A DNA stretch of 64,000 nt from an uncultured Selenomonadales bacterium (GTDB lineage Bacteria > Bacillota > Negativicutes > Selenomonadales > Selenomonadaceae), in NCBI GenBank assembly GCA_946408105.1, contig CAMJQS010000001.1, positions 4,077 through 68,076 on the forward strand, given 5' to 3'. Within the stretch, counting starts at the first letter, position 1. Every line of letters begins with the position of its first letter. Made by a program: the position numbers and the translations under genes. This document shows, piece by piece, positions 2,106 through 63,116 of the stretch. The notes beneath the pieces were generated by a model. The model was given only the letters and a program-made list of their open reading frames with translations, was not told the DNA's origin and made no database searches.

Positions 2106-3560
2106 TTGGCTTATAAAGATTTGCGCGAATTCATCGACGCGCTGGAGAAAAAAAATTTGCTCAAGCGAATAAAAATTCCCGTCGACGCAGAGCTTGAGAT
2201 AACCGAGATAACCGACCGCGTTTCAAAGTTCAAAGACGGCCGCAACGTCGCCCTGCTGTTTGAAAATGTTCGCGGCTACGACATGCCCGTTTTAATGAAC
2301 GCATTCGGCAGTTACGAGAGGATGGCTCTTGCCCTCGGCGTGGAGAAACTCGACGACGCGGCAAATGACATTCGCGAAATTATGAAGTTGCCGTATCTGT
2401 CGTTCAAAAATCGCTCGAACATTTTTTCTATCGTGTCGACCGCGCACAAGGCGATTAACTTTCCAAAGTACGTGAAGAACGCGCCTTGCCAAGAAGTCGT
2501 CGAAGTCAATCCGTCGCTCGATAAAATTCCTATCCTCAAGTGCTGGCCTAAAGACGGCGGAGCTTTTATAACGTTGCCGCTCGTCTTCACGAAAAATCCC
2601 GCGACCGGCAAACGCAACGTCGGCATGTATCGCTTGCAAAAGTACGACGCGCGCACGACGGGAATGCATTGGCACATTCACAAGAACGGCGCAGAAAATT
2701 TCCGTGACGCAAAAACTCTCGGCTCAAATAAAATTGAAGCGGCCGTGGCAATCGGCACCGACCCCGTCGTAACCTACGCCGCGACCGCTCCTCTTCCGCG
2801 CGACGTGGACGAAATGGTTTTCGCGGGCTTCTTGAGGAAAAAATCTGTCGAACTGACGAAGTGCAAGACCGTCGATTTGGAAGTCCCCGCGACCGCCGAA
2901 ATTATTTTGGAAGGTTACGTTTCGACTGACGAGCTGCGCCGCGAAGGTCCTTTCGGCGACCACACCGGCTATTATTCTTTGGCGGACGATTATCCCGTCT
3001 TCCACGTCACTTGCATCACGCACAGAAAAAATCCGATTTACTTTGCGACCGTCGTCGGCAAGCCGCCCATGGAAGATTGCTACATGGCGAAGGCCACCGA
3101 AAGAATTTTTCTTCCTCTCCTTCAGCAGCTCTTGCCTGAAATTATCGATATCAACATGCCGCTCGAAGGCGTCTTTCACGATTGCGTTATCGTCTCGATA
3201 AAAAAACAATTCCCCATGCACGCCCGCAAAGTTATGCACGCGCTGTGGGGTCTCGGACAGATGATGAACGTTAAAATGATTGTCGTCGTCGATTCGCACG
3301 TTGACGTTCAAGACTTGAGCGAAGTGGCCTGGAGAGTTTTTAACAACATTGACGCCGAACATGATTTGGAAATTGTTCACGGGCCGCTCGACGTGCTCGA
3401 CCACTCGTCGCCGTATGCAAAGTGGGGCGCAAAGCTCGGAATCGACGCAACGAAAACTTGGGCGGAAGAAGGTCACGCGCGCGAATGGCCGGACGAAATC
3501 GAAATGTCGCCTCAAGTCAAAGCTCGCGTGGACAGCATTTGGAATTCGCTCGGATTATAA
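2106..3560 (+). CDS. ubiD: UbiD-family (prenylated-FMN dependent) decarboxylase
   Basis: 484-aa ORF starting MAYKDLREFIDALEKKNLLKRIKIPVD, typical UbiD N-terminus and length; TTG start 8 nt after AAGGAG. Confidence 0.85.
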   Translation: MAYKDLREFIDALEKKNLLKRIKIPVDAELEITEITDRVSKFKDGRNVALLFENVRGYDMPVLMNAFGSYERMALALGVEKLDDAANDIREIMKLPYLSFKNRSNIFSIVSTAHKAINFPKYVKNAPCQEVVEVNPSLDKIPILKCWPKDGGAFITLPLVFTKNPATGKRNVGMYRLQKYDARTTGMHWHIHKNGAENFRDAKTLGSNKIEAAVAIGTDPVVTYAATAPLPRDVDEMVFAGFLRKKSVELTKCKTVDLEVPATAEIILEGYVSTDELRREGPFGDHTGYYSLADDYPVFHVTCITHRKNPIYFATVVGKPPMEDCYMAKATERIFLPLLQQLLPEIIDINMPLEGVFHDCVIVSIKKQFPMHARKVMHALWGLGQMMNVKMIVVVDSHVDVQDLSEVAWRVFNNIDAEHDLEIVHGPLDVLDHSSPYAKWGAKLGIDATKTWAEEGHAREWPDEIEMSPQVKARVDSIWNSLGL

Positions 3561-3563: not shown

Positions 3564-3593
3564 CTAACAGCTAACAGCTAGAAGCTAACAGCT
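3564..3593. repeat. Tandem heptanucleotide array (CTAACAG x4, one variant CTAGAAG)
   Basis: Read directly between ubiD stop and ychF RBS: ctaacag ctaacag ctagaag ctaacag ct. Confidence 0.9.
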
Positions 3594-3614
3594 AAAAAAA
3601 CCGGAGGTTTTTTT

Positions 3615-4916: not shown

Positions 4917-4950
4917 GCCAATCACCTCGCCGCAAATGTAACAAATTTTC

Positions 4951-4979
4951 TTGACGCAGTCAATCGCATAAAATAAAAT
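4951..4979 (+). promoter_or_regulatory. Sigma-70-like promoter upstream of the csoR-like gene
   Basis: TTGACG - 17 nt - TAAAAT read directly, 27 nt upstream of the ATG at 5006. Confidence 0.5.
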
Positions 4980-5005
4980 TTCCAAAAACTTTTCGGAGGG
5001 CAACA

Positions 5006-5314
5006 ATGCACGAACACAAATTGGAAGACGGCACGACGATTTGTCACAGCCACACGCACACACAAACCAAGGCAGTTTTGAATCGCATGGCGCGGCTCAT
5101 CGGTCACCTCGAATCGACAAAGCGAATGATTGAAGACGGAAGAGACTGCGACGAAGTTTTGATTCAGCTGTCGGCCGTCGACGCCGCGATTAAAGCCGTC
5201 GGCCGAATCATTTTGAAAGACCACATCGAACATTGCATCGTTGAGGCCGTCAAGACCGGCGACACCGAAGCGATTGAACGACTCAACAAAGCCATAGAAA
5301 AATTTATCCGATAA
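5006..5314 (+). CDS. csoR: CsoR/RcnR-family metal-sensing transcriptional repressor
   Basis: 102 aa with His-rich N-terminus, ...RDCDEVLIQLSAV...KDHIEHC; Cys/His/Cys ligand pattern of copper-type CsoR. Confidence 0.8.
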   Translation: MHEHKLEDGTTICHSHTHTQTKAVLNRMARLIGHLESTKRMIEDGRDCDEVLIQLSAVDAAIKAVGRIILKDHIEHCIVEAVKTGDTEAIERLNKAIEKFIR

Positions 5315-10112: not shown

Positions 10113-10773
10113 CGACTTCGCCCGCCAAAATCAAACCGGCGACACTCGGCACGAAGGCAGCGGAGCCGATAAAATTTTTCACGGGGCGCGGCGTCTCGTC
10201 CGACCAAACGACTTTCAAATTTTTTATGCCGCGCTCTTTTAATTTTTTGCGCAAAATTTTTGCGACGGGGTCGACGGACGTTTGAAAAATATCCGCGACT
10301 TTAAATTTCGTCGGGTCAAGTTTGTTGCCCGCGCCCATGCTCGAAATAATTTTTATCTCGCGGCGCGCGCACTCCTCGACCAAAAAAATTTTCGCCGCCA
10401 ACGTGTCAATCGCGTCGACGACGTAATCGTATCGGCAAATAAAAAAATCCTCGACGTGTTCGTCGGGCAGAAAAAATTTTTGAATCGTATCGACTCGCGC
10501 GGCGGGGTTAATGTCAAAAATTCTCTCGCGCATGACTTCGACTTTTGACTTGTCGACCGTGGACGTGAGCGCGTGAAGTTGTCGGTTGATGTTCGTTTCG
10601 TCGATGTCGTCTTTGTCAATCAAAACCAAATGGCCGACGCCCGAACGAGCCAGAGCCTCGACCGCGAACGAGCCGACGCCGCCCACGCCGAACACCGCGA
10701 CCGTCGCCGCGTTGAGTTTGGAAAAATTTTCTTCGCCGATTAAAATTTTCAGCCGCTGAAATCTGTCGTTCAT
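10051..10773 (-). CDS. tcdA: tRNA threonylcarbamoyladenosine dehydratase (ThiF/E1-like, TcdA/CsdL)
   Basis: MNDRFQRLKILIGEENFSKLNAATVAVFGVGGVGSFAVEALARSGVGHLVLIDKDDIDETNINRQ; start at internal ATG with RBS AAGAGGAA. Confidence 0.8.
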   Translation of the reverse strand: MNDRFQRLKILIGEENFSKLNAATVAVFGVGGVGSFAVEALARSGVGHLVLIDKDDIDETNINRQLHALTSTVDKSKVEVMRERIFDINPAARVDTIQKFFLPDEHVEDFFICRYDYVVDAIDTLAAKIFLVEECARREIKIISSMGAGNKLDPTKFKVADIFQTSVDPVAKILRKKLKERGIKNLKVVWSDETPRPVKNFIGSAAFVPSVAGLILAGEVVKDLTSEVCDRRSASNWSCA

Positions 10774-10917
10774 GAATTCCTCTTTGCAAAAAATTTTTAA
10801 CAACAAACGAAATAATCTCGGCGCGGCGACTGACTAAAAATTTTTGAACACTCGAACGCGTCAGCTGTTCCGCCGCTTTCAAAGCGGCCGCCGATTAAAA
10901 TTTTCAGCCGCTGAAAT
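10734..10917. repeat. Gene-boundary cassette E: 126-bp insert (10763..10888) flanked by perfect 29-bp direct repeats (10734..10762 and 10889..10917)
   Basis: Both copies read cgccgattaaaattttcagccgctgaaat. The left copy is codons 5-14 of tcdA. The right copy follows an ATG that overlaps the ftsZ stop as ATGA. Confidence 0.9.
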
Positions 10918-19435: not shown

Positions 19436-20110
19436 TTGGAGATGATAATTTTGAAAGTCGAAGAAATTTTTTTCCGAGATATGTATCACCAAATTTGTTT
19501 GCTCACGGACGCGGCCTTGGCCGGAAAATTTATCGACATGCTGGAAATGGACGACGAGAAACCCGACGGACTTTTGGCTTACGGTTACATTGATAAGGAC
19601 GCGGGCTTCACGTTCAGCATTTTGGGCGGCGCGAAAACTTCGGGCGGCAAGCTGAAAATTTTTCCGATAAACTACAAAGCGGCGGCTGTCGTTCGGCGCG
19701 GCGCAACTGCCGAGGCCGACGTAAAAATTTTGACGGACGATTACGCGCTGGCCTTCCGCGACCGAATGCAAATGATTAACGACACGTACGCCGTCGACGA
19801 CGCAAGAGAGCAGACGCGCTTCATAAAAAATCTCGACGCCTTCCGCCACCCCGATTATCCCGACGATGTTGTCGTTTATTTTTTCCACGCGGAAGACAAG
19901 CCCGAACTTTTGTGGGTGCGCTGCTTGAGCGTCGACGAAAATATTTTGAAGGGCGAACTTTTGAATGAGCCGACGAAAAATTTTGGCTGTCATGCGGGCG
20001 ACAAAATTAAATTCGGCGTCGCGAAAATCGGCGAGCAAAATATTTTGCTCCACCTGCCGACAACGGCGGGCAACGTGACGTTGCATCCAACGGACGCGCT
20101 TGAGCAATAA
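19436..20110 (+). CDS. Hypothetical protein (224 aa)
   Basis: Ordinary amino-acid composition on the + strand, whereas the antisense ORF is Arg-rich; last ~13 codons lie in a repeat-family copy. Confidence 0.6.
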   Translation: MEMIILKVEEIFFRDMYHQICLLTDAALAGKFIDMLEMDDEKPDGLLAYGYIDKDAGFTFSILGGAKTSGGKLKIFPINYKAAAVVRRGATAEADVKILTDDYALAFRDRMQMINDTYAVDDAREQTRFIKNLDAFRHPDYPDDVVVYFFHAEDKPELLWVRCLSVDENILKGELLNEPTKNFGCHAGDKIKFGVAKIGEQNILLHLPTTAGNVTLHPTDALEQ

Positions 20111-24451: not shown

Positions 24452-24461
24452 GGTGAGTGTC

Positions 24462-25259
24462 ATGAAAAAATTTTTCCTGATAATTTTCGTCGCGATTTTC
24501 TTTCTGCCGCTCGGAAAACTTGAGGCGGGACACTTGGAAGATATTTCTTCGCGCGGAACAATCCGAATCGGCACGACGGGCGATTATATCCCGATGTCTT
24601 ATCTCAACCCCGCGACGGGCGAGTACGAGGGAATCGACGCGGAACTTTCAAAAATTATCGCGGCGTCTTTGGGCGTGAAGATTGAATACGTTCCGACGAC
24701 GTGGCCGACGCTCTCCGCCGATTGTCAAGCCAACAAGTTCGACATTGCGCTTTGCGGTATCTCCAGAAATTTTGCGCGGGCGAAGACAATGGCGATGAGC
24801 GACGCTTACGGCGAAGGGCTCTTCGGCAAAACAATTCTCTGCCGCAAGACCGACGCAAAAAAATTTAAAAGCGTTGCCGACCTGAACAAGCCGACCGTCC
24901 GAATCATGATTAACCCCGGCGGCACGAACGAAAAATTTGCCCGCGCCAATCTTCCGAACGCAAAACTTATCGTCCACGAATCCAACGCAGACATCCCGAT
25001 TCAAATCGCCGAGGGCAACGCCGACATCATGATAACAGAGACCGTCGAGGCTGTCAGTTGGGTTAAGCGCGAACCGAGGCTTGCCGCGCCGCTCGTCGAC
25101 AAACCTTTCGAGGGCACGAAACATTCTTGCGGAATTTTGTTGCAGAAGGGCGACCAAGAATTTTTAAACTACGTGAATTTTGTTTTGGCGGAGCTGCGTA
25201 TGAACGGCACGCTTGAAAAGTTGGAAATAAAATATTTGGGACGCAAGCCGGCAAAATAA
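24462..25259 (+). CDS. Periplasmic substrate-binding protein, family 3 (amino-acid/cyclohexadienyl-dehydratase-like)
   Basis: Signal peptide, GTIRIGTTGDYIPMSYLN...GIDAELSKIIAASLGVKIEYVPTTW. Confidence 0.75.
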   Translation: MKKFFLIIFVAIFFLPLGKLEAGHLEDISSRGTIRIGTTGDYIPMSYLNPATGEYEGIDAELSKIIAASLGVKIEYVPTTWPTLSADCQANKFDIALCGISRNFARAKTMAMSDAYGEGLFGKTILCRKTDAKKFKSVADLNKPTVRIMINPGGTNEKFARANLPNAKLIVHESNADIPIQIAEGNADIMITETVEAVSWVKREPRLAAPLVDKPFEGTKHSCGILLQKGDQEFLNYVNFVLAELRMNGTLEKLEIKYLGRKPAK

Positions 25260-25383
25260 TCGACAACATTTAAACGCGGCGAGCGGCTGAAAATTTTTAC
25301 GGCTCAAGCGCGTTCATTGGATGCAACGTCACGTTGCCGGCACGCTTGAGAAATTGGAAACAAAATATTTGGGAAGGAAACCG
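25205..25383. repeat. Gene-boundary cassette B: 87-bp insert (25251..25337) flanked by a 46-bp direct repeat with 6 mismatches (25205..25250 and 25338..25383)
   Basis: cggcacgcttgaaaagttggaaataaaatatttgggacgcaagccg versus cggcacgcttgagaaattggaaacaaaatatttgggaaggaaaccg; insert ends in GCAACGTCACGTTGC (25323..25337). Confidence 0.9.
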
Positions 25384-29586: not shown

Positions 29587-29596
29587 GTTCAAATTG

Positions 29597-29707
29597 TTTG
29601 GAAAAAATCTTGCCGCTTTAAAAGCGGCGGAACAGCGGACGCGTTTAACGTTAAAAAATTTTTAGCCGCTCGCCGCGCTCAAACGTTTTGGAAAAAATCT
29701 TGCCGCT
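29597..29707. repeat. Gene-boundary cassette D: 69-bp insert (29618..29686) flanked by perfect 21-bp direct repeats (29597..29617 and 29687..29707)
   Basis: Both copies read tttggaaaaaatcttgccgct; right copy encodes ...RQDFFQ of the nif3-like gene. Confidence 0.9.
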
Positions 29708-30467: not shown

Positions 30468-31228
30468 AAAGTTTCCTCCAAAAATTTAAGCACGTCGTCG
30501 AAATTTTTTGCGAGCTGCGGATAAAAAATTTTCGGGCGGTCAATCATGACGACGGGCAAGTTTAAAATTTTCGCCGCCTCAAGTTTCGTATCCGCGCCGC
30601 CGATTTGCCCGCTGTTTTTCGTGACGACGACTTCGGCCTGTGCGTGTTTGAAAAGTTCGGCGTTGAGTTCGGTCGAGAAGGGTCCTTGCATGGCGACAAT
30701 TTGTTTCGGCAACAAGCCCAAAGCTTCGCACTGACTTAAAACGTCGGCGGTCGGCAAAACGCGCGCGGTCAAGTTGCAACCTTTGAGCAGGTCGACAAAA
30801 ATTTTCAAGCTGCGGCTGCCCGTCGTGAGATAAATATTTTTTCCGAGCTGCGACGCTTTGAGCGCGGCCGCCTCGTAGCTTTCGACGCGGAAAATTTTTT
30901 CGTAGTCAAAAATAATTTCCGCGCGTTCGTAGCGGACGTAAAAAATTTTTGCGGCTTGGGCGGCGGCGATTGCGTTGGCGGAAATATTTTTTGCGTAAGG
31001 GTGGCTGGCGTCGACGAGGAAATTAAATTTTTCTTCGCGCAAAATTTTTTCCAACTCGTCGCGGTCGAGCGGCTTGTCGTTAATCTTGACGGCCGCGCAA
31101 CTCTCCAAAAGTTTTCGTCCGTAATCGCTGACGACAGAGGCCGTCACGTCGAAATTTTTTCCCGACAAAAATTCTGCGAGCCGGCGTCCGTCTTCCGTTC
31201 CCGCGATTAAAAAAATTTTTTTGTTCAT
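30464..31228 (-). CDS. cbiJ: (Cobalt-)precorrin-6A reductase
   Basis: MNKKIFLIAGTEDGRRLAEFL..., 254 aa, ...VVVTKNSGQIGGADTKLEAAKILNLPVVMIDRP. Confidence 0.8.
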   Translation of the reverse strand: MNKKIFLIAGTEDGRRLAEFLSGKNFDVTASVVSDYGRKLLESCAAVKINDKPLDRDELEKILREEKFNFLVDASHPYAKNISANAIAAAQAAKIFYVRYERAEIIFDYEKIFRVESYEAAALKASQLGKNIYLTTGSRSLKIFVDLLKGCNLTARVLPTADVLSQCEALGLLPKQIVAMQGPFSTELNAELFKHAQAEVVVTKNSGQIGGADTKLEAAKILNLPVVMIDRPKIFYPQLAKNFDDVLKFLEETL

Positions 31229-31323
31229 GATAACTCCGAGCGCGGTGAGCGACCGAAAAATTTTTTCGACTCAAGCGCGACCATTGGATGCAACGTCACG
31301 TTGCAAAAATTTTTTTGTTCATG
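31211..31323. repeat. Gene-boundary cassette C: 75-bp insert (31230..31304) flanked by perfect 19-bp direct repeats (31211..31229 and 31305..31323)
   Basis: Both copies read aaaaatttttttgttcatg (reverse complement of the cbiJ start ATGAACAAAAAAATTTTT); insert ends in GCAACGTCACGTTGC (31290..31304). Confidence 0.9.
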
Positions 31324-31856: not shown

Positions 31857-33890
31857 ATGACTTTTACTCACGCGGCGAACCTTTATCGTTCCGTCGGCAA
31901 ATCCAAAAAGTGCACGTTTATTTTTTGTTCAGACCACGGCGTCGCCAAAGAAAATGTCAGCGCATACCCGCAGGCCACGACAGCCGACATGGTTAAAAAT
32001 TATTTGGTCGACGGTGGAGCCGCCGCCAACGCTTTTGCGAAGTTCGCTTACTCCGAGCTTTACGTCGTGGACGTGGGCGTCGACGCGGACGTTTCAAATT
32101 TGCCCGGGCTCGTCGACAGAAAAATTTCGCGCGGCACGAAAAATATTTCCGAAGAACCCGCCATGACTTTTGAACAGGCAATGCAATCCGTTCGCGTCGG
32201 AAAAAAATTGGCGGAAGAAGCAATCGACGCGGGTTGCAACTGTTTTCTTATCGGCGAAATGGGAATCGGCAACACGACGACCGCCGCCGCAATGACCGCC
32301 GCTTATCTGAACTTGTCGCCCGAAGAAGTCACGGGGCGCGGCTCGAATGTCGACGACGAAAAATTTTTGCACAAGATTGAAATCGTTCGACGCGCTCTCG
32401 TACGCAACGGCCCCAATCGAAACAGTTTGCTCGACGTGCTCACGAAGGTCGGCGGCTACGAATTCGGAGCAATGGCAGGCGTGATTATCGCGGCTTATCA
32501 TCACGGCTGCGTTGTCATTCTCGACGGATTCAACACGGCGGTTGCCGCGCTCGTCGCCGAAGAAATTTTGCCGCAATCGATTGACTGCCTCATTGCCTCT
32601 CACGTCGGCCGCGAAGTCGGACACAAAAAAATTTTGGATTACCTCGACTTGCAACCGATTTTTAATCTTGACCTTGCGTTGGGCGAAGCTGTCGGTTCGT
32701 CAATCGCCGCGCGCGTCTTGGACAATCTGGTTTACATTTTTGTTTGCCCGCCCGACGCCGATTTTGAAGGCGACCTTTTCCAAGAGGACAGAGCGTTGGA
32801 AAATTTTAAAAAGCAGCTCGGCTTGGACGGCGTGGAAGGCCTCGACACGATTGAAGACGTTCAAGAATTTTTGGGCGACGAAATTCAGATTGAAGAAATT
32901 CCGCTCGACTTCCACGTCAGCGAACACCGTATGGAAAGCGTCGAAGTTCCCTTCAGCACGCACACTTCAAACATCCCGCGCGCCTACCCGATGAACGTCC
33001 GCATTATGGGCGAAGACAAAGAAGAACTTATCGCCGCGACGGACAGAACTTTTAATTTTTATTTGCAGACGATGCCGCGCCTCCACGACCGCCCGATGAA
33101 TAATTGCCGCGAACTTTTGGACAGCCTGACCAAACCCAAACGCAGTCTCGGTTACCTGGAGGAAATCGCCGTGCAAGTCGCGGGCATTGCCAACGAAGAC
33201 TGCCCGACGAATAAACTTCGACACGCCGCGTTGGCTTTTGCAAACTTTGAAAATTGTCCGTCGCTCGTCGACCCCGAACACTACGACCGCACAGCAGAGG
33301 GCGCACGCCGCGATTTGTCCACGGACTTCAGCGCGACGGTTCGCACGTTCGGCATGAAAGTTTTTTTGGGCGTCGTCGACCCCGAAGAAAATATTAACGT
33401 CGCGTTCAATTACGGGCGCAACATTGCCGAGGAAATTACTTTCGACACGCCGATACTTGCCGTCACGGATTTGGGGCATCTTTTGGAAGACAAGCTCGCC
33501 GAAAAATTTTCCGAAGCTCTGTTGACGGAAGACGGCGAATTAAAATTTCCGCCCGAAGAATTTTTGCGCCACGTCCCGAAAGATTGTCGGTGCATGGCGG
33601 GCGCGATTATCGGCGCGTTGGTGGCCGCCGCCCACAACTCAACTTTAATCGTCGTCGACACCGGCGCGATTGAAATCATCACGCGCTACTTGGAAAAAAT
33701 TTGTCCCGAAATTCGCCCGTTCATTCTCCATTCCGCCGCGCTGATTAAATACAAAAACGAAGACGGCACTCCACTCGGCCTGGACGGCGAGGCGGCTTGT
33801 ATCGGCGTCGAGATTGTCGAGGCGGCGTTGATTGCTTTGAACGAGATGAAAACTTTCGACGAGACGGGCGTGAAGAAAGCGATAAGATGA
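31857..33890 (+). CDS. cobT: Fused double CobT-like protein (nicotinate-nucleotide:base phosphoribosyltransferase family, ArsAB-like)
   Basis: First half: FCSDHGV, GEMGIGNTTTAAAM, VILDGFNTAVAAL, LALGEAVGSS. Second half: LTKPKRSLGYLEEIAVQVAGI ... LGLDGEAACIG ... NEMKTF. Confidence 0.7.
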   Translation: MTFTHAANLYRSVGKSKKCTFIFCSDHGVAKENVSAYPQATTADMVKNYLVDGGAAANAFAKFAYSELYVVDVGVDADVSNLPGLVDRKISRGTKNISEEPAMTFEQAMQSVRVGKKLAEEAIDAGCNCFLIGEMGIGNTTTAAAMTAAYLNLSPEEVTGRGSNVDDEKFLHKIEIVRRALVRNGPNRNSLLDVLTKVGGYEFGAMAGVIIAAYHHGCVVILDGFNTAVAALVAEEILPQSIDCLIASHVGREVGHKKILDYLDLQPIFNLDLALGEAVGSSIAARVLDNLVYIFVCPPDADFEGDLFQEDRALENFKKQLGLDGVEGLDTIEDVQEFLGDEIQIEEIPLDFHVSEHRMESVEVPFSTHTSNIPRAYPMNVRIMGEDKEELIAATDRTFNFYLQTMPRLHDRPMNNCRELLDSLTKPKRSLGYLEEIAVQVAGIANEDCPTNKLRHAALAFANFENCPSLVDPEHYDRTAEGARRDLSTDFSATVRTFGMKVFLGVVDPEENINVAFNYGRNIAEEITFDTPILAVTDLGHLLEDKLAEKFSEALLTEDGELKFPPEEFLRHVPKDCRCMAGAIIGALVAAAHNSTLIVVDTGAIEIITRYLEKICPEIRPFILHSAALIKYKNEDGTPLGLDGEAACIGVEIVEAALIALNEMKTFDETGVKKAIR

Positions 33891-44484: not shown

Positions 44485-45621
44485 TCATCTCCCGAAGCTT
44501 TTTAGAATCGCGCAAATTTTTCTCACGTCGTCCTCGGCAAGTTCGCCGTACATGGGCAAGCTTAAAACTTGTCGGCCGATAAGATTTGCGGCGGGAAGAT
44601 TGTCGGAGCTCGACGAATTCAGCTGACGATAGCAAGTGTACTCGCTGCACAGCGGATGAAAATATTTTCGCGTGTAGACGTTGAAATTTTTAAAAGCCTC
44701 GTGAACAAAATCCCTCGACCGCCCGAAAATTTTTTCGTCGACGCGCACGACGTAATATTGATAATTGAGCTTGACGTCGGCTGCGCATTTCGGCAAGAGT
44801 TTCAAGCCTTCGACCTCGGAAAGTTCTTCGTTATAAATTTCGTGCAGACGAATTCTTTTTTGCCGTTCGCCTTCGACGTAGTTGAGCATGATTCGACCAA
44901 TCGCCGCGCGCACTTCGTCGAGCTTGCCGTTTATGCCGGGCATGACGACTTCTTCCTCGTTCTTGATTCCGAAATTTTTCAGCAGGTCAATTCGTTGCTT
45001 AACGTGTTCGTTCTTCATGACGAGCGCGCCGCCTTCGACGGTGTGATAAAGTTTCGTCGCGTGAAAACTCAGCATGGAAATGTCGCCGAAGTTCCCGATG
45101 CCTTGCCCGCCGATTTCCACGCCGAACGCGTGAGCCGCGTCGTAGACAACGCGCAAGCCGTAACGGTCGGCAACCTCTTGAATTTTTTCAACGGCGCAGG
45201 GCGTGCCGAAAACGTGAACCGCCAAAATTGCCGTTGTGCGCGGCGTTATCATCGATTCGATTTTGTCCGCGTCGATGTTCATGGTCTCGGCGTCCACGTC
45301 GCAAAAAATCGGCGTGATGTTATTCCAACTCAAAACGTGGGGCGTGGCCGCGAACGTGAAAGGCGTCGTGATGACTTCGCCGCTCAACCTTAGACTTTGG
45401 CACGCAACCATTAGCGCGATTGTTCCGTTGTTGAACAGCGACAGGTGCGGAACCTTCAAAAAATTTTTCAGCTCGCGCTCAAGCATCGTGTGTTGCGGGC
45501 CGTTGTTCGTCAGCCACTTTGAATTCCAGATGTCGCGCAATTTTTCCGTGACTTCCTCAATCGTCGGGAAAACCGGCCGCGTCACGAAAATTACTTTTTC
45601 AAACGGCTCAAGATTTTTCAT
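44485..45621 (-). CDS. DegT/DnrJ/EryC1-family PLP-dependent sugar aminotransferase
   Basis: ...NGPQHTMLERELKNFLKVPHLSLFNNGTIALMVA..., ...SMLSFHATKLYHTVEGGAL (PLP lysine). Confidence 0.9.
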   Translation of the reverse strand: MKNLEPFEKVIFVTRPVFPTIEEVTEKLRDIWNSKWLTNNGPQHTMLERELKNFLKVPHLSLFNNGTIALMVACQSLRLSGEVITTPFTFAATPHVLSWNNITPIFCDVDAETMNIDADKIESMITPRTTAILAVHVFGTPCAVEKIQEVADRYGLRVVYDAAHAFGVEIGGQGIGNFGDISMLSFHATKLYHTVEGGALVMKNEHVKQRIDLLKNFGIKNEEEVVMPGINGKLDEVRAAIGRIMLNYVEGERQKRIRLHEIYNEELSEVEGLKLLPKCAADVKLNYQYYVVRVDEKIFGRSRDFVHEAFKNFNVYTRKYFHPLCSEYTCYRQLNSSSSDNLPAANLIGRQVLSLPMYGELAEDDVRKICAILKSFGR

Positions 45622-45800
45622 CGGTCGTCTCCTTTTTATGTGTTTGTATTCTACTTTTTCTTTGCGCGCCCTTTTTAGCTGTTAGCTGTCAGCTGTTAGT
45701 AATTAGAAAATCGAACAGCTTTAAACTAACAGCTATCAGCTAAACATGACGGCCTCTGATTACGCGGCGCGGTCTTCTTCATCGGTCGTCTCCTTTTTAT
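45617..45800. repeat. Gene-boundary cassette F: 138-bp insert (45640..45777) flanked by perfect 23-bp direct repeats (45617..45639 and 45778..45800)
   Basis: Both copies read ttcatcggtcgtctcctttttat. The left copy is the RBS plus ATG of the DegT gene. The right copy encodes ...KKETTDEE of the M48 gene. Confidence 0.9.
45677..45746. repeat. Hairpin built from heptanucleotide repeats: (AGCTGTT/AGCTGTC)x3 facing (CTAACAG/CTATCAG)x2-3
   Basis: Read directly; the arms are reverse complements of each other and of the array at 3564..3593. Confidence 0.85.
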
Positions 45801-47529
45801 TTTTTTTCTTGCGAATTTTTTCGGCCGTCTTCGGGTCAATTTTTTCCAAATAATTCAGCGGGACGACGCGCGGATTTTTTTTCGTCAGCTCGTAAAGTCT
45901 TTTGTAACTTTCCAAGGCCTTGTCGGTTTGCTTTGTCTCGTCGAAAATTTCTGCGCGCAACTTGTAAGCAATCGGATTTTTTTCGTCGAGAGCAACGGCG
46001 CGTTCAATGTCCTCAAGCGCAAGTTCCAACTCGCCGCGCATGTGTCGAACGTCCGCGCGATTTAAAAAATTATACAAATTCTTCGGGTCTTTATCAACAG
46101 CCGCGTTCGCGTCGACAAGTGCGCCGTCGTAGTCTCCGCAAATCGCCTTCGCCCGTCCGCGAATGCCGAGACACTCCGCCACGTCGTCCTGGTTTTTTGC
46201 GCGAAGGGCGCGTTCAATTTGTTTAAGCGCAAGTTCGCCCTGGCCGTGGTCGTTGTAGATGTCCGCGTTGATTCGCAGCTGCGTGGCGGCCTTGGCTTTG
46301 GCGGCGTCGGCTTCGTCACGTACCTTCGCCCAAAAAATTTTCCTCTTTTCGTCCGCCTCAAAAATTCTTTCACGCGTCCGAGGACTTTCGTATTTGTAAG
46401 CAAGCTCGACGAGCGTCTGAACTTTTTCGCCGAGGTTGTACAGATTCGACAGGGCGCGCAGCTCACGATAAGCAAGTTCGTCGTTCAAAAAATCTGTCGT
46501 GTTCCCGACGCGCCGAAAGTTCCAGCCGTCAATCGAATCGTAATCGTGGAAAGCCTTCGACAGGCCGCCCGCGAAGTAGTAAGCGTTAATCGCCGCGCTC
46601 GTGGGGTCGTCGCCCGTGTTCATCGAGTAAAAAATTTCGCGGCCGTCAATCAAAACTTTATAGGCGCGGTCGACTTTGCGAACGATGACATGGCCGCCGC
46701 CGTATTCGCTCATCATCTGCGACAATTTTGCTTCGCGCTTGTCGGTGTCGGGGTGGTCGCTGAAAGTTTGCTCGTCGGGTTTGTCGTGCGCGTCGAACTC
46801 CAAAAAGTCGCGTGTCTCGTATCGAACGTAATAGCCCAGGCGATTCATCGAGGCCGCGCCGCCGCCGGGATTAAATCCCGCGCTCGTCATCAGATAAAAA
46901 CCGCCCTCGTCGGCCTCGTATTCGGCGGGCACGTTAATATTTTTGGCGATTGAGTAATCGACCATCGCGGAAAATTTATTCCAGTCAATGTTCCTGCCGT
47001 TGTCGGCGTGCAATCCGACGATCATCGCGCCGAGCTGTTGAGCGACGGCTTGCGCGTAACTTTTAGCGGAGTGTTGCTCAAGGCCGTGAGTCATCTCGTG
47101 GGCAAGGACTGCGGCAATTTGATTTTCGTCGCCGTTCAAATTTCTGACGAGCCCGCGATTAATGCTGATGTAGTTCATCGGGTAACACGCGGCGTTAAAT
47201 TTTTCGTCGTCGTTTACGCTCCACACGAACGGCAGAGAGTTTGCTTTGAGTTCGTATTGGCCGTTGTTTACGAGACGAGTCATCACCGAGTCGACGAGTT
47301 CAACGTCGCGTTTGTTTTTGTCGACGCCGTTTTTTTCCATGTCCTGTCTGCGAACGGCCATTTGCGCGTCGACGTTGTTGCCGAGCGCGAGCATTTCCCT
47401 AAGCGTCGACTGATACGCCGCCAAAACTCCGAGAGCCTCCGCCGCGATTGCCCAGCCGTCTGCCGCGAAAACTTTCACGGGATTTAAAAGCGTCGCGACC
47501 GTCACGAGCACGATTAAAAATTTTTTCAT
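45760..47529 (-). CDS. Secreted M48-family Zn metallopeptidase with C-terminal TPR repeats
   Basis: Signal peptide MKKFLIVLVTVATLLNPVKVFA, AAVLAHEMTHGLEQH (HExxH), TPR-like C-terminal half. Confidence 0.85.
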   Translation of the reverse strand: MKKFLIVLVTVATLLNPVKVFAADGWAIAAEALGVLAAYQSTLREMLALGNNVDAQMAVRRQDMEKNGVDKNKRDVELVDSVMTRLVNNGQYELKANSLPFVWSVNDDEKFNAACYPMNYISINRGLVRNLNGDENQIAAVLAHEMTHGLEQHSAKSYAQAVAQQLGAMIVGLHADNGRNIDWNKFSAMVDYSIAKNINVPAEYEADEGGFYLMTSAGFNPGGGAASMNRLGYYVRYETRDFLEFDAHDKPDEQTFSDHPDTDKREAKLSQMMSEYGGGHVIVRKVDRAYKVLIDGREIFYSMNTGDDPTSAAINAYYFAGGLSKAFHDYDSIDGWNFRRVGNTTDFLNDELAYRELRALSNLYNLGEKVQTLVELAYKYESPRTRERIFEADEKRKIFWAKVRDEADAAKAKAATQLRINADIYNDHGQGELALKQIERALRAKNQDDVAECLGIRGRAKAICGDYDGALVDANAAVDKDPKNLYNFLNRADVRHMRGELELALEDIERAVALDEKNPIAYKLRAEIFDETKQTDKALESYKRLYELTKKNPRVVPLNYLEKIDPKTAEKIRKKKNKKETTDEEDRAA

Positions 47530-50282: not shown

Positions 50283-50300
50283 ATTTTTGAGGTGATGGAC

Positions 50301-51011
50301 GTGAAAAAAATTTTTACTCTGACATTTTTAATCGCGATGATTTTTTGCGCGACGACGTTCGCCGAAGAAATTCCGCCGCCGATAATTTCCGTGAGCGGTG
50401 AAGGCGTCGTCGAAGCTCAACCCGACCGCGCGACAATTTCCGTGGGCGTCGTCACTCGCGAAAAAAATCCTTCCGCCGTTCAAGCCGCCAACGCTCGCGC
50501 CGCCTCGAACGTCATCAACTCGATTGTCGCGCTGGGTGTCGAACGCAAAAATATTTCGACGGGCAATTACAGTTTCAATCCCGTCTATCGGCACCACGAC
50601 AACGGCAAGAGGACGCTCGACGGCTACGAGGCGACAAATTCCGTGACGGTCATCGTCGACGATTTAAATCTTGTCGGAAAAATTATCGACGCGGCTTTGA
50701 ATCACGGAGCAAATCGTGTCGACAGTTTGAACTTCGGCCTGCGCAACAAAGCAGCTTATCAAGACGAAGCGTTGAGGCTGGCCGTCCTGGACGCGAAGAG
50801 AAAAGCTCAAGTGGCGGCCGCCGCCCTCGGCAAAAATATTTTGAGCGTCCGCAGCGTTTCGATTAATTCAAGCCACGTTTCCGCCCCGCGAAATTATAAA
50901 ATGGCGCGCGCCTCGGCAATGGAAGACGCCGCCGAATTTGAAACGCCGATTGAAAGCGGAACGTTGACTTGCGCGGCGTCCGTTCACGTCGAATTTGAAA
51001 TCAGCCGGTGA
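50301..51011 (+). CDS. SIMPL/DUF541-domain periplasmic protein (YggE-like)
   Basis: Signal peptide (M)KKIFTLTFLIAMIFCATTFA, ISVSGEGVVEAQPDRATISVGV...; start uncertain (GTG 50301 with GAGG 8 nt upstream, or ATG 50295). Confidence 0.75.
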   Translation: MKKIFTLTFLIAMIFCATTFAEEIPPPIISVSGEGVVEAQPDRATISVGVVTREKNPSAVQAANARAASNVINSIVALGVERKNISTGNYSFNPVYRHHDNGKRTLDGYEATNSVTVIVDDLNLVGKIIDAALNHGANRVDSLNFGLRNKAAYQDEALRLAVLDAKRKAQVAAAALGKNILSVRSVSINSSHVSAPRNYKMARASAMEDAAEFETPIESGTLTCAASVHVEFEISR

Positions 51012-51013
51012 TA

Positions 51014-51073
51014 GGTGTCGGGTGTCAGGGGTCAGGAGGTTTTAGCTGAAACCTGAAACCTGAAACCTAAAAA
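51014..51073. repeat. Two facing heptanucleotide arrays: GGTGTCG GGTGTCA GGGGTCA and CTGAAAC x3
   Basis: Read directly; the arms can pair imperfectly (7 of 8 positions per unit). Confidence 0.85.
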
Positions 51074-52907: not shown

Positions 52908-52953
52908 TTTAATCTGTCTCCTTTTGTAAGGTGTTGAAATTTTTTTCCTGTTT

Positions 52954-52982
52954 ATTATACGTCAGCCGGAGGATTTTGTTAC
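52954..52982 (-). promoter_or_regulatory. Promoter P1 of the GG-leader gene
   Basis: Minus strand GTAACA - 17 nt - TATAAT. Confidence 0.55.
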
Positions 52983-53047
52983 AGCTTTGAAAAAAATTTT
53001 TTCGGCTCGCGGCGTCGGAAGATGTCTTTTAAAATTTTGTTCGTCAT
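52979..53047 (-). other. 22-codon relic ORF MTNKILKDIFRRREPKKFFSKL, a duplicated and truncated 5' end of the GG-leader gene
   Basis: Preceded by AAAGGAGGC and a second promoter copy; first 8 codons parallel MAKEILKD; stop codon lies in the -35 of P1. Confidence 0.5.
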
Positions 53048-53092
53048 TTTAATTTGCCTCCTTTGTCTTTGCTTGAATTTTTCTTTCTGCGT

Positions 53093-53121
53093 CTTATACG
53101 TTCGCCGAAGAATTTTGTTAC
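53093..53121 (-). promoter_or_regulatory. Promoter P2, a duplicate of P1
   Basis: Minus strand GTAACA - 17 nt - TATAAG, same spacing and flanks as P1, 140 bp upstream. Confidence 0.5.
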
Positions 53122-53166
53122 ACGCTGGAAAAAAATTTTCCTCCGACTTTTGCCGAAGGAAATTTT

Positions 53167-54486
53167 TTAATCGACGACCGAGCCAAACACTCCGTCCTTG
53201 TGCAGGCGTTCGATTTTTATTTTGACGACCGAGCCGAGGCGAATATTTTTTTCGGGCGAATAGACGCGGACATAATTTTTCGTCAGGCCGTCGACGATTC
53301 CGTCCGTCGAAGTTTCCGCGATTATTTCGACCGTCTTGCCGATTAATCGTTCAGAAAAAATTTTTGTCTTCGCCCGCGAAATTTCCAAGACTTGAGCCGC
53401 GCGGGATTTTTTTGTCTGCGGAGAAATTTGATTGGGCATCGTCGCCGCCAAAGTTCCCGCCCGCGCCGAAAACGGGAAGACGTGAATTTTGCTGAACGGT
53501 TGCGCTTGAAGAAATTTCAGCGTCTCGAAAAAATTTTCGTCGGTCTCGCCGGGGAAGCCGACAATTAAATCCGTGCCGATTGAAATTTGCGGAACCTCTT
53601 CGACAAGGCGCGCAGTCAGCTCCGAAAAATTTTTCGTCATGTACGGGCGACGCATCGCCTTTAAAATTTCGTCGCTGCCCGACTGCAACGGCAAGTGAAC
53701 GTGATTGCAAATGCGGCCGTCGTTTTTTATCAAGTCAATCAGCGCGTCGGTCATCTCCGCCGATTCAATCGAACCGAGCCGCAAGCGCAGAGGATTGGCC
53801 GCGTCGAGAACAATTTTAATCGCGTCGACGAGAGAAATTCCCTGCCCCCTGAACCCTGACACCTGACCCCTTAAATCCCGCCCGTAAGCTCCGATGTGAA
53901 TTCCCGTCAAAACAATTTCTTTGAAGCCCGCCGCTTTTAATTCCAAACACTCCGCGCGAATGCTTTCAAGGGGGCGGCTCCTCACGCGACCGCGAACGTA
54001 AGGAATTATGCAGTAGGAACAAAAATTGTTGCAACCGTCTTCAATCTTCAAAAAAGCTCGCGTGCGGTGCGGGCTGTGCGGAAGCTCTTCAAACTCGCGG
54101 ATGTCTTCGACGCTGCCGACTTGAAAAATTTTTTCGCGACGATTAATCGCGGCCTCGACAAGTTCGACAATTTTTGTCCTGTCTTTCGTGCCGATTATCA
54201 CGTCCACGCCGTCAATCTTTGAAATTTCTTCGGGCTCGCTTTGCGCGTAGCAGCCGACGACGACCACCACGCAATTTTTTTTTGCCGCGCGACGAATCAT
54301 CTGCCGCGACTTTTGCGAACTTACTGCCGTGACTGTGCACGTGTTCACGACGACGACTTGAGCCTCCGAAATTTTTTCCGCGATTGTCCAGCCCGCCGCC
54401 TCGAAAAGTTTTTGCATGGCCTCCGTCTCGTATTGATTGACTTTGCAGCCCAGCGTTTGGAAAAAAATTTTTTTAACTCCGTTCAT
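53167..54486 (-). CDS. mtaB: tRNA methylthiotransferase (radical SAM, MtaB/MiaB family)
   Basis: IFFQTLGCKVNQYETEAM..., CNNFCSYCIIPYVRG radical-SAM cluster, TRAM-like C-terminus. Confidence 0.85.
   Translation of the reverse strand: MNGVKKIFFQTLGCKVNQYETEAMQKLFEAAGWTIAEKISEAQVVVVNTCTVTAVSSQKSRQMIRRAAKKNCVVVVVGCYAQSEPEEISKIDGVDVIIGTKDRTKIVELVEAAINRREKIFQVGSVEDIREFEELPHSPHRTRAFLKIEDGCNNFCSYCIIPYVRGRVRSRPLESIRAECLELKAAGFKEIVLTGIHIGAYGRDLRGQVSGFRGQGISLVDAIKIVLDAANPLRLRLGSIESAEMTDALIDLIKNDGRICNHVHLPLQSGSDEILKAMRRPYMTKNFSELTARLVEEVPQISIGTDLIVGFPGETDENFFETLKFLQAQPFSKIHVFPFSARAGTLAATMPNQISPQTKKSRAAQVLEISRAKTKIFSERLIGKTVEIIAETSTDGIVDGLTKNYVRVYSPEKNIRLGSVVKIKIERLHKDGVFGSVVD
53841..53868. repeat. Four tandem heptads (CCTGCCC CCTGAAC CCTGACA CCTGACC) inside the mtaB coding sequence
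   Basis: Read directly; the minus strand encodes GQVSGFRGQG; related to the GGTGTCA array at 51014. Confidence 0.85.
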
Positions 54487-60666: not shown

Positions 60667-63102
60667 TCAACCTTTGGGCGTGTACTTCATCAAAATATTT
60701 TTTCCCGAATCGTAAATCGGAATGAATTTATCCGCGCCGCCTTTGACGACAATTTCTCCGTCGCCGACAGTGAAAGTGACATCGCCCGCCGCAGAAATCG
60801 GCATTCCCACTTCGCCCGACAGCACTCTGATTTTGTCGTCGGAATTAAAATCTTCGATAACGTCGCAGCCGTCGCCGTCCTTGTAAACGAAAATATCTTT
60901 GCCGTCGCCGCCGAAGAGTGTATCGTCGCCCGCGCCGCCCCAAAGTGAATCATTGCCCGCGCCGCCGTTCAAGCTGTCGTTGCCTGCGCCGCCCGTGAGC
61001 GTGTCTTTTCCGTCGCCGCCAAGGATTGTGTCTTTGCCGGCCGCGCCGTCAATCAGGTCGTCGTCTTCCGTGCCGATGATTTTGTTGGCTTTTTTGTTGC
61101 CGACGATTTTTAAAGAATAATCGACAGCCGCCGCGTTAATCGTCTTGAGTGTGTCGACGTAATCGGCGTACTCGCTCGGCGTGAATTCGTCCGCCGTGTA
61201 GTTCGTCGTGAGTGTCGCGCCCGTGCCCGCCGAATTGTATTTCACGCCGTCCGCAGATTTTTTATAAACGTGTTCGCCGCCCGCGTCAACGTAAGTGACA
61301 ACTTTATCGGCTCCGCCCGCCACGGAAATTTTTCCTTTGCCGACAGTCAAAATCAAATCGTCGCCGCTGGTCGAAGTTACCGCCGTTCCCGAAGCGATAG
61401 AAATTTTATCTTCCTCTGCGTAGTCGGTGATGACGTTCGCGCCGCTCGATTTGTAATAAAACGTGTCGGAACCTGCGCCGCCCGTCACGCTTCCCGCGCC
61501 CAAAATTTTAATCGTGTCGTCACCTTTGCCTGCTTTGACCAAAATATTTTTTCCGCGCGCAACAATCGTATCGTTGGAACTGCTGCCGGTTATCGTCGCC
61601 TTAGAATAGTCCGCCGCGAAGTCGTAAATATAACTTCCGCTGACCGTAACTTTTTTTGACAGCGCACTTGCCGCCGCCGTAATCGTTTTGCTTTTGAGCT
61701 TAAGACCGTCGAGAGAAGTCACGCCCTTCATCGTCGCCAAAGTTTTTGCGGCCGTTGACTTCGAATAAGTTATCTCGTTGTTTGAAAGTTTGTAGCCGGC
61801 CGTCGTCGCCGCGCTCTTATAAGTTGCAGTCGTCCCGTCGAGTGTCCAGCCCGCCGCCGTCGTCTTCGATTTGGTTACGTTTGAGCCGAGCTTTAAAGTA
61901 TAACCGTCGCTGATTGTGACTTTGCCGGTGCCGAGTGAGGCCTTCGAGACCGTCACAACTTTTTTGCTCAAGCTCAAGCCGTCCAAACTTTTCACGCCGC
62001 TGACCGTCACAAGCGTCGTTGTAGATTTTTTCGAGTAAGTTATAGCGTTGTCGGCGAGAGTGTAGCCCGCGCTTTTCGTTTGCTTGTAAGCGGCCGTCGT
62101 CCCGCTCAAGCTCCAAGCTTTTGTCGTCTTCGGTGCCGTGACATCATCGGCAAGCGCAAGAGTATAACCGTCGCTGATTGTGACTTTGCTCGTGCCGAGT
62201 GACGCTTTGGCAATGGTGACGGTCGTGCCGTCCAACGAAATGCCGTCGAGACTTTTAACGCCTTTGACGACGAGCGAACCGTAAGTGGCGGTCGTGCCGG
62301 AGAGCGTCCAAGAAGTTTCTTCACCGTCGATGTTGACAGCCGACAAACTCGCCGCGCCCGCCAAAGTTATCTTGCCGTCGCCGACCGTAACGATTACATC
62401 GTTTCCGCTTGTCGTCGTCGAGAATGTCGCACCCGAAACGTTCAGCGTCGAAGTTTCATTGAAGCCGATTACTGAATCGTTGCCGTCGCCTGATTTATAT
62501 TGAATTAAATTGTACTTGTTACTGGAATGTAAACTGATTAAATCGTTACCCGCGCCCGCGTCGATTTTCGCGTGCCAGTTACGAATGTTAATGTAATCGT
62601 TGCCCGCACCTGCATTAATTGTAACGTAATCAGCGAAGCTGTAAATAGAATCGTTACCCGCGCCTGCGTCAATTGTTGCTGAATTGCTGTAGCTGTAAAT
62701 AGAATCATCACCCACGCCCGCGTCAATTTTCACGTACTGGTCAATGATGTCAATTGAATCGTTGCCCGCGCCGCCGTAAATTGTTGCATTTTTGCCGCTA
62801 CTTTCAATGTAATCGTTACCGTCACCGCCGTTTATTGAAACATTACCGCCCCAGTTTTTGATTGAATCGTTGCCCGCACCGCCATAGATTGTAGGTTGGT
62901 AGCCGTCGTTGAAAATCGTATCGTTGCCTTTTCCCGCGTTGATTGAAACGTTCGAGCCGTTGTTGAGAATGAAATCGTTGCCCGCGCCCGCGTTAATTGT
63001 CACATTATCGCCGCTGTAGTGCCAGCCGCCGTTTTGAATTGAATCTGCGCCGCTCGTGCCGCTGACCAAAGTGTTGTTCTTTCCGTTGTAAATGTCTGCC
63101 AT
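60667..63102 (-). CDS. 811-aa RTX-type calcium-binding repeat protein (probable type I secretion substrate)
   Basis: ~11 N-terminal units of xVxIxAGAGNDxI, three ~65-aa S/T/K-rich modules, C-terminal GGAGNDSLNGGAGNDSLWGGAGDDTLFGGDGKD; no signal peptide. Confidence 0.85.
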   Translation of the reverse strand: MADIYNGKNNTLVSGTSGADSIQNGGWHYSGDNVTINAGAGNDFILNNGSNVSINAGKGNDTIFNDGYQPTIYGGAGNDSIKNWGGNVSINGGDGNDYIESSGKNATIYGGAGNDSIDIIDQYVKIDAGVGDDSIYSYSNSATIDAGAGNDSIYSFADYVTINAGAGNDYINIRNWHAKIDAGAGNDLISLHSSNKYNLIQYKSGDGNDSVIGFNETSTLNVSGATFSTTTSGNDVIVTVGDGKITLAGAASLSAVNIDGEETSWTLSGTTATYGSLVVKGVKSLDGISLDGTTVTIAKASLGTSKVTISDGYTLALADDVTAPKTTKAWSLSGTTAAYKQTKSAGYTLADNAITYSKKSTTTLVTVSGVKSLDGLSLSKKVVTVSKASLGTGKVTISDGYTLKLGSNVTKSKTTAAGWTLDGTTATYKSAATTAGYKLSNNEITYSKSTAAKTLATMKGVTSLDGLKLKSKTITAAASALSKKVTVSGSYIYDFAADYSKATITGSSSNDTIVARGKNILVKAGKGDDTIKILGAGSVTGGAGSDTFYYKSSGANVITDYAEEDKISIASGTAVTSTSGDDLILTVGKGKISVAGGADKVVTYVDAGGEHVYKKSADGVKYNSAGTGATLTTNYTADEFTPSEYADYVDTLKTINAAAVDYSLKIVGNKKANKIIGTEDDDLIDGAAGKDTILGGDGKDTLTGGAGNDSLNGGAGNDSLWGGAGDDTLFGGDGKDIFVYKDGDGCDVIEDFNSDDKIRVLSGEVGMPISAAGDVTFTVGDGEIVVKGGADKFIPIYDSGKNILMKYTPKG

Positions 63103-63116
63103 GAAAATCATCTCCT

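Follow-up and report, generated by a model that had tools for sequence, protein, structure and literature searches.

Insertion sequences of the IS1634/IS1549 type produce flanking duplications of tens to hundreds of base pairs that vary in length. In recoded genomes, the engineered refactoring of overlapping genes duplicates the overlap together with the upstream ribosome-binding region. The heptamer repeats of cyanobacteria are classed into STRR families. Contiguous heptamer repeats occur in filamentous cyanobacteria (Nostoc and Calothrix) and have also been reported from Beggiatoaceae (10.1101/2022.06.06.494920). In homology-facilitated illegitimate recombination and transformation merodiploidy, one homologous anchor and one illegitimate joint insert non-homologous DNA (PMC3240628; PMC3784515). 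The phenomenon analysed here is of known kinds, namely small structured intergenic repeats, insertion scars with flanking repeats and heptamer arrays. It lies in a 64-kb stretch of contig CAMJQS010000001.1 (the window), in which an insert between two copies of a 23-nt sequence separates an M48 metallopeptidase gene from a DegT-family aminotransferase gene. Comparison with relatives indicates that the insertion is real and strain-polymorphic in a species-level cluster of the uncultured rumen bacterium Quinella, since one independently assembled contig is filled at this place and another contig is empty.

The duplicated junction between the M48 and DegT genes

Both genes are on the minus strand. 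The upstream gene (45760..47529) encodes a 589-residue M48 metallopeptidase with C-terminal TPR repeats (Pfam PF01435, 2.4e-15). The downstream gene (44485..45621) encodes a 378-residue DegT/DnrJ/EryC1-family aminotransferase (PF01041, 1.9e-95) and heads a glycan-type cluster, in which it is followed by a FabH-like gene and then by the gene for a 1456-residue protein. The 23-mer TTCATCGGTCGTCTCCTTTTTAT is present in exactly two copies in the window, at 45617-45639 and 45778-45800, with an offset of 161 nt. No further match with up to three mismatches was found in the window and none is expected from shuffled sequences, which confirms the duplication proposed in the initial annotation of this DNA. 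The repeat extends by three more bases with one mismatch (45614-45639 versus 45775-45800, 25/26 identical; minus strand ATAAAAAGGAGACGACCGATGAA[A/G]AA).

Copy 1 of the repeat (45778..45800, minus strand, extending to 45775 with the one mismatch) is located in the 3' end of the M48 gene and encodes ..KKETTDEE. It retains a Shine-Dalgarno sequence and an ATG, both now redundant, and aligns to the single copy in the empty contig L022. Copy 2 (45617..45639, minus strand, likewise extending to 45614) contains the Shine-Dalgarno sequence AGGAG (45629-45633), the ATG (45619-45621) and the second codon of DegT. The two copies thus have the roles first ascribed to them. The insert that separates them (45640..45777, minus strand) is 138 nt long (135 nt with a 26-nt repeat) and is missing from L022 and from 15 of 17 relatives. 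It supplies the present M48 C-terminus, as had been claimed: DRAA and the stop codon (GAC CGC GCC GCG TAA; 45760..45774, minus strand, read from 45774 to 45760) are insert-derived.

A search with the M48 protein yielded 18 loci from rumen genomes of Quinella and other Selenomonadaceae (75–87% identity), 17 of which include the end of the gene. The M48 stop codon falls inside the first DegT codons, with an overlap of 8–14 nt, in 15 of these 17; L005 and L015, for example, read ..AAAAAGGAGACGACTGATGAAGAATCTTGA and have the M48 tail ..KKETTDEES*. Given this distribution, the compact overlapping junction is considered the ancestral state. The closest empty site is in L022. Its M48 protein (P0002) is 98% identical and ends ..KKETTDEKS*, and its DNA matches that of the window with 97.7% identity over 4.1 kb on the upstream side and 96.8% on the downstream side. 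The M48 gene (2359-4119) and the DegT gene (4106-5242) overlap by 14 nt with no insert between them, which is exactly the state that the initial annotation had reconstructed by joining the two repeat copies (..TTDEKS*).

Contig L023 (95.7% DNA identity; M48 protein P0003, 95% identical, ending ..TTEDEDRAA*) is filled at the same place and carries both repeat copies. Its left flank, GAAGA[C/T]CGCGCCGCGTAATCAGA GGCCGTCATG, is as in the window, and the right flanks are homologous (GTAAGAACACAAAAAC in L023 versus GTAGAATACAAACAC in the window); the spacer measures 188 nt in L023 and 138 nt in the window. A DRAA end without the insert, which would have spoken against the proposed history, was not seen: among the 120 homologues listed, only the two insert-bearing proteins end in DRAA. 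L019 (93% M48 identity) has a third type of junction, with a terminator and a convergent gene. Because of this third type, and because a different hairpin element has been inserted here in other lineages (see below), the M48/DegT boundary is regarded, from these comparisons, as a rearrangement hotspot.

The four-hairpin element and its heptad-repeat interior

In L023 the spacer holds a complete element, ∼190 nt in length, whose fold is a series of four hairpins (-77.6 kcal/mol, z = -4.8). An nhmmer search of ∼300 kb of Quinella DNA, made up of locus stretches from more than 20 genomes, recovered five copies of this element, four of them directly 3' of the M48 stop codon. The copy in L007 lies between M48 and DegT. 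In L003 it lies between M48 and a cobT-like gene, DegT not being a neighbour. The copy at L001:598-802 is 3' of an unrelated ADP-ribosylglycohydrolase gene, and an empty-site comparison is impossible there because the relatives have groES as the downstream neighbour. The M48 lineages that bear the element are non-monophyletic on the M48 tree. The conserved 5' end of the element, TTGAGGCCGYCATG, forms the first hairpin arm, and a 3' module ACGCCCCCGCGAGGTGCCCTTTCTTTGC..CTTTCTTTGGGCAYGCAAAGAAAGTAGA is also conserved. A few stem positions change on both sides between copies, the three or four sequences being too few to prove selection on structure. Alignment revealed no terminal inverted repeats; neither of the two ends, TTGAGGCCGYCATG.. 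and ..GCAAAGAAAGTAGA, is the reverse complement of the other. The flanking repeat is exact over 23 nt in the window and L023 (25/26 when extended) and ∼29–30 nt long but now diverged in L007; in L003 and L001 its length is not assessable.

The window retains only the two ends of this element. The 5' remnant, TCAGA GGCCGTCATG (45745..45759, minus strand), contains GGCCGTCATG, which in the complete elements of L023 and L007 forms the first arm of hairpin 1; L001 has the variant GGCCGCCCATG instead. The 3' remnant, GGGCGCGCAAAGAAAAAGTAGAATACAAACAC (45640..45671, minus strand), corresponds to the 3' strand of hairpin 4 plus the tail, is homologous to L023, L007, L001 and L003, and was recovered by nhmmer as a match at 45605-45671 (E = 0.002). 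In place of the 128-nt interior there is a 78-nt stretch (45672-45744 and adjacent bases) that holds a 71-nt heptad hairpin. A similar replacement, starting from the same point after GGCCGTCATG and containing TTAGGAG heptads, is found in L003. As read from these alignments, the insert derives from the four-hairpin element by decay, the heptad hairpin having secondarily taken the place of the interior. The insert had been described as differing in cargo from other putative cassettes of the window. It is not a distinct kind of cargo, the element being present at full length at this site in L023.

No Rfam 15 family matched the window at gathering score, and none matched L001, L003 or L007 at E <= 1; a tRNA scan of the window was also negative. 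Searching viral contigs for three motifs of the element gave either nothing or only five chance matches in high-GC coding DNA, so that the four-hairpin element does not appear to be phage-borne as far as three motifs can tell. A small open reading frame (ORF) as the content of the element was rejected since the ORFs are not conserved between copies.

The 71-nt hairpin (45674..45744, minus strand) pairs a 5' arm UUUAG CUGAUAG CUGUUAG.. with a 3' arm CUAACAG CUGACAG CUAACAG CUAAA and is more stable as sense than as antisense RNA (-34.7 versus -28.6 kcal/mol). The surrounding region (45622-45762) folds at -38.2 kcal/mol as sense RNA (z = -4.3), with arms composed of AGCTGTT/CTAACAG heptads. This pattern has nine matches in the window versus 0.15 expected. 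Folding and a one-armed array elsewhere in the window bear out the original description of the arms and of the same heptad at 3564: four CTAACAG units followed by CTAAAAAAA (3564..3596, plus strand) lie between the stop codon of gene 2106..3560 and the ychF ribosome-binding site. A second heptad hairpin in the window (51013..51072, plus strand), in which three GGTGTCR units face three CTGAAAC units, with A7 coming next, starts 2 nt past the stop codon of gene 50292..51011.

Heptad arrays are not confined to this window. In 307 kb of Quinella DNA, five arrays of at least three near-perfect heptads were observed versus 0.05 expected, and there were no contiguous arrays of periods 8–12. TRF detected ∼15 looser heptad arrays in 225 kb, with the units CTAACAG, TTAGGAG, GGTGTCA, AGGAATC and CATTACG. 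The AGCTGTT/CTAACAG unit is found at the M48/DegT insert, at window position 3564 and in L083, the GGTGTCA/GTCAGGG unit in the window, L019 and L021, and TTAGGAG at three L003 loci. By this survey, heptad arrays are a genus-wide repeat class in Quinella. Many of them adjoin stop codons, and arrays that face each other in inverted orientation form hairpins of 60–90 nt. Three of five heptad hairpins are more stable as sense than as antisense RNA, which does not decide between a role in RNA and one in DNA. At L003:8006-8025, a 16-nt TTAGGAG run separates two genes that overlap (ATGA) at window 33880-33890 and supplies both the TAG stop codon and the AGGAG Shine-Dalgarno sequence. We rejected a HutP-like UAG-N4 motif as an explanation of the heptads, since UAG is missing from other heptad hairpins.

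Only one strain (L089:1-203, compared with window 3430-3614) was found to encode an identical YchF protein. There, the DNA preceding the ATG is completely unrelated to that of the window, the heptad array is missing and another gene is the neighbour. From such comparisons, recombination in these populations seems often to break at gene boundaries. As a separate observation, a GGTGTCA-type heptad array (53840-53871, minus strand) lies inside ORF 53167..54486, where it is read as ..GRDL[RGQVSGFRGQG]ISLVD... By eye this ORF resembles an MtaB-type radical-SAM enzyme; heptads can thus sit in frame within a gene.

The two genes flanking the insert are probably still co-transcribed, since no terminator-like site is present in 45400-46000 and a consensus scan detected no sigma-70-like promoter there. 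The sense strand continues after the hairpin with AAAAAGGG, which is not a U-tract, so that the hairpin does not qualify as an intrinsic terminator. The DegT ribosome-binding site is now outside the translated region and M48 ends with a new four-residue tail; from this arrangement we infer translational uncoupling of the two genes. The spacer hairpin may act as a protective or processing structure at the mRNA 3' end. Any function of the insert is dispensable, because the interior has been swapped and a sister strain lacks the insert.

Origin of the duplication

The reading we favour, to which we assign an even chance, is that rare illegitimate recombination, by haplotype joining or tandem duplication of the junction, was filtered by selection, in preference to a transposase-made target duplication; it is not proven. 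In the ancestor, the last 14 nt of M48 were also the first 14 nt of DegT, and the M48 tail held the DegT ribosome-binding site. The lineage shared by the window and L023 has the ∼190-nt element between the genes, with a copy of the junction sequence on either side. The original duplication would have been ∼32 nt long and reached the old TTGA stop if the 15-nt in-frame piece GACCGCGCCGCGTAA was added later. Two routes are conceivable. Coexisting haplotypes, one with M48 and the element and the other with the compact M48/DegT junction, may have been joined through homology at one end and illegitimately at the other; alternatively, a short tandem duplication of the junction may have created a spacer into which the hairpin element was later inserted. 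The interior was subsequently exchanged, in the window strain, for the 71-nt AGCTGTT/CTAACAG hairpin. Palindromes flanked by direct repeats are easily and precisely deleted by slippage. Slippage between the flanking repeats, promoted by the internal hairpin, could accordingly restore the compact allele, and this is one account of L022.

Both genes survive because the upstream copy keeps the M48 tail and the downstream copy keeps the DegT Shine-Dalgarno sequence and ATG. At an overlapping junction, neither gene is damaged only if the shared segment is duplicated, and selection alone therefore accounts for repeats that span the end of the upstream gene and the ribosome-binding site or start of the downstream gene. 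Selection for a duplicated shared segment would also explain why the repeat length varies by junction independently of cargo. Four of the five element copies are at an M48 3' end, in non-monophyletic lineages and in L003 even without a DegT neighbour, so that linkage of the element to M48 in one spreading haplotype would fit better than repeated transposition. A possible trace of two parents is a base difference at the edge of the repeat: the M48 copy carries the G allele (DEE, as in L005/L015), and the DegT copy and the empty-site L022 carry A (DEK). L022 would be the compact parent, and an M48-element parent is seen in L003, none being found in the same species.

The evidence at the M48/DegT junction itself, a single G/A difference beside an exact 23-mer, is thinner than that at the SBP/queA junction (window 25205-25383, with SBP at 24453..25259; loci L084-L088), which appears to be the cassette C of the initial annotation. 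Relatives show two compact forms of this junction, one with a 20-nt overlap and the tail ..GRKPNASKRL*, and the other with a TAATG overlap and the tail ..GRKPxK*. In the window, a tail of the TAATG type is followed by a hairpin element and, beyond it, by a 46-nt relic of the form with the 20-nt overlap. Between the two 46-nt copies there are six base differences, five of them synonymous in the upstream frame (p ∼0.016 by our own estimate), which would fit two diverged alleles and not a fresh target duplication. In L085, 176 nt of the SBP 3' end are duplicated at this joint (after TAAT) without any cargo; the first 70 nt of its second copy contain six synonymous differences and four conservatively replaced codons, and the remaining 106 nt are identical. 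Across junctions, the repeats are 19, 23, 29, 46 and 176 nt long, and apparently of zero length in L025. The earlier proposal that the duplication is independent of its cargo is supported by this cargo-free case and by the insertion of another element at the M48/DegT junction.

That other element belongs to a second hairpin family, with the head GCAACGTGACGTTGC..., which occurs at many loci, in both orientations and also in phage contigs. In other lineages an element of this family (head GCAACGTGACGTTGCATCC) has independently hit the M48 tail at varied points of its dispensable Lys/Glu-rich part, where it has brought in a stop (..KEKAT*, L025-27) or, in L024, a new tail (..QRDVASSGRD*). The 19-nt head GCAACGTGACGTTGCATCC is present in the window at 20070-20088 (plus strand), 25319-25337 (minus strand) and 31286-31304 (minus strand), and at loci L024-L027, L033-L078 and L089. 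It is found exactly in 53 distinct contexts, 46 of which are stretches of viral contigs in IMG/VR that come from many biomes and have unrelated flanks; by a rough estimate not computed by a tool, fewer than one is expected by chance. The preceding base is a purine in 48/53 and the following base an A in 38/53; a stop codon directly precedes the head in 8/53. In the terminase genes of L048 and L065 the head is read in frame (QRDVAS). It belongs to no Rfam family, phage loci at E-value thresholds included, and its sequence was found in no paper by literature search.

Several points weigh against recombination as the source of the M48/DegT duplication. No donor haplotype (M48 ending ..DRAA* with the element and no DegT) is present among the 120 homologues listed, and informative sites in the window, L022 and L023 reveal no mosaic block around the insertion. 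The repeat is exact, and a recent target-site duplication would look identical. Mobile hairpin elements do exist here, as shown by the GCAACGTGACGTTGC-headed family, two window copies of which have exact flanking repeats. We know of no natural transformation or other route of DNA import in the uncultured Quinella, and homology-facilitated illegitimate recombination elsewhere usually deletes recipient DNA and does not duplicate it.

The strongest rival, a possible but unlikely one in our judgement, is a miniature non-autonomous mobile element whose insertion by long, variable staggered cuts and repair left a target-site duplication of 23–26 nt. The clean pair of empty and filled sites (L022 versus the window and L023) with an exact flanking repeat is what such an element would leave. 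So are the related copies at the same junction in non-monophyletic lineages, with joints that differ slightly (window/L023 versus L007), and the copy at the unrelated L001 locus. The second hairpin family behaves as mobile, being found at several loci in both orientations with exact flanking repeats of 19 and 29 nt, and the IS1634/IS1549 group is generally known to make long direct repeats of variable length. However, the four-hairpin element lacks terminal inverted repeats, and only five copies are seen in ∼300 kb from more than 20 genomes, four of them at one junction. Repeat lengths that range from 19 to 176 nt and are sometimes zero (L025) do not fit the stagger of one enzyme. In L085 there is a duplication with no cargo, and mainly synonymous differences between repeats cannot come from a fresh target duplication. 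No transposase was identified, no protein scan for a Y1 transposase having been made.

Template switching during replication, which we consider improbable, would produce insertion and duplication in one step if a stalled 3' end copied the element elsewhere and returned ∼25 nt behind its point of departure. This would account for the variable repeat length, the independence of cargo, insertion in either orientation and the preference for hairpin cargo, and another element copy in a related genome (L001:598-802) could have been the template. No source copy of the element was found in the 64-kb window, though, and microhomology at the joints is not assessable without a source; the homeologous SBP/queA repeats, which are copies of diverged alleles, would also be left unexplained. 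Quite improbable, in our view, is a dedicated non-transposase process in Quinella, perhaps in its phages, that inserts hairpin DNA at tight junctions after stop codons and duplicates 19–176 nt. Its footprints would be the heptad hairpins, the four-hairpin element and the phage-shared 19-nt head GCAACGTGACGTTGCATCC. The word cassette, as first applied to this insert, stands for the geometry of flanking duplications; the dedicated insertion mechanism that it implies is not demonstrated.

It is very doubtful that the insert is primarily a selected regulatory module, acting on M48 as terminator or insulator, or on the DegT cluster as promoter or leader. A very stable hairpin does follow directly past the stop codon, heptad arrays are found repeatedly past stop codons and ahead of ribosome-binding sites, and heptamer repeats near gene starts have been proposed as regulators in Nostoc (10.1101/2022.06.06.494920). 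The missing U-tract, sigma-70-like promoter and Rfam match nevertheless speak against this, as do the interior swapped between close strains and the 97.7%-identical L022 without the insert. An assembly artefact such as two stitched strain variants, conceivable since the window is from a metagenome-assembled genome, mixed Quinella strains co-occur in the rumen and the window's own M48 and DegT proteins have no exact database match, is nearly excluded because L023, an independent assembly (a MEGAHIT-style k141 contig) from another sample, shows the same joints, DRAA tail and repeats with substitutions of its own, while the insert is not a variant of either flank and DRAA-ending M48 proteins come from two separate collection entries.

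Other short-range duplications were noticed in the window. Those at 10734-10917 (29 nt, exact), 29589-29707 (29 nt at 90%) and 31211-31323 (19 nt, exact) each enclose a hairpin insert at the start or end of a gene. A CGCG..AAAATTTT..CGCG module is common to the inserts, and two of the three supply a new ribosome-binding site/ATG or a stop codon. The palindrome AAAATTTT, mostly in GAAAAATTTTTC-like runs, looks very frequent by eye in coding and non-coding DNA. A tandem duplication of ∼139 nt (52912-53139, minus strand; 79% identical) comprises a promoter-like region, a ribosome-binding site and the first codons, and yields two alternative 5' gene ends, MAKEILKD.. and MTNKILKD... Finally, 54-nt and 27-nt periodic repeats (62537-63017 and 60894-61028) are present in an 814-residue ORF (60667..63111, minus strand); their pattern suggests a repetitive secreted or surface protein.

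Comparison with described repeats and rearrangements

The four-hairpin element and its relatives, the inverted-heptad hairpins and the long duplications of varying length at overlapping junctions do not appear to have been described before in Quinella or other Negativicutes, and a literature search found the palindrome sequence in no paper. The locus shows how overlapping, coupled genes can be parted in nature without damage to either, and one species provides the empty, the full-length and the decayed allele. It places a recombination hotspot beside a variable glycan gene cluster and adds three undescribed repeat classes from an uncultured rumen bacterium, namely the four-hairpin 3' element, the heptad hairpins and the hairpin element with the phage-shared head. 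If a specific mechanism makes the variable-length duplications, it would be a new mode of DNA insertion, and a dedicated process would amount to a natural system of gene uncoupling or refactoring. Unless such a duplicating insertion mechanism is demonstrated, the locus is a fairly ordinary trace of genome shuffling.

Like miniature inverted-repeat transposable elements (MITEs) and REP/BIME, RUP and Correia-type elements, the sequence described here is short (138–190 nt), non-coding, hairpin-forming and located at gene ends, and it is present or absent between close strains with a flanking target repeat. It differs from them in having no terminal inverted repeats, no GTAG-type REP signature and a very low copy number. 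Its flanking repeat of 23–26 nt is far above the usual fixed 2–10 bp of MITE-type elements, and no partner transposase was identified. Among the hallmarks of a MITE or transposon, empty and filled sites in close relatives, differing by the element and one repeat copy, are present; terminal inverted repeats are absent, and many dispersed copies were not found in the ∼300 kb scanned. Insertion sequences of the IS1634/IS1549 type are autonomous elements of 1.5–2 kb with a transposase and inverted ends, and nothing of the kind is seen here.

The Quinella arrays consist of at least three contiguous 7-nt units at several loci beyond chance, as the cyanobacterial STRR, their nearest described analogue, do. 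The two are alike in their tandem heptanucleotide arrays of 3–8 units, in having several unit families per genome and in their non-coding position near gene starts or ends. The Quinella arrays differ in their host, a member of the Negativicutes, in their units (CTAACAG, TTAGGAG, GGTGTCA and AGGAATC, which presumably match none of the STRR1–3 units) and in forming facing inverted arrays after stop codons. Homology-facilitated illegitimate recombination and merodiploidy resemble the present case in the duplications that accompany imported DNA and in the allele-like divergence of the copies. The former is known from competent model species and its classic products mostly delete recipient DNA; merodiploids are large and not 20–180 nt. 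The geometry at M48/DegT is identical to that of the engineered refactoring of overlapping genes, so that an arrangement used deliberately by genome engineers is found here with a natural origin and with filler DNA between the two copies.

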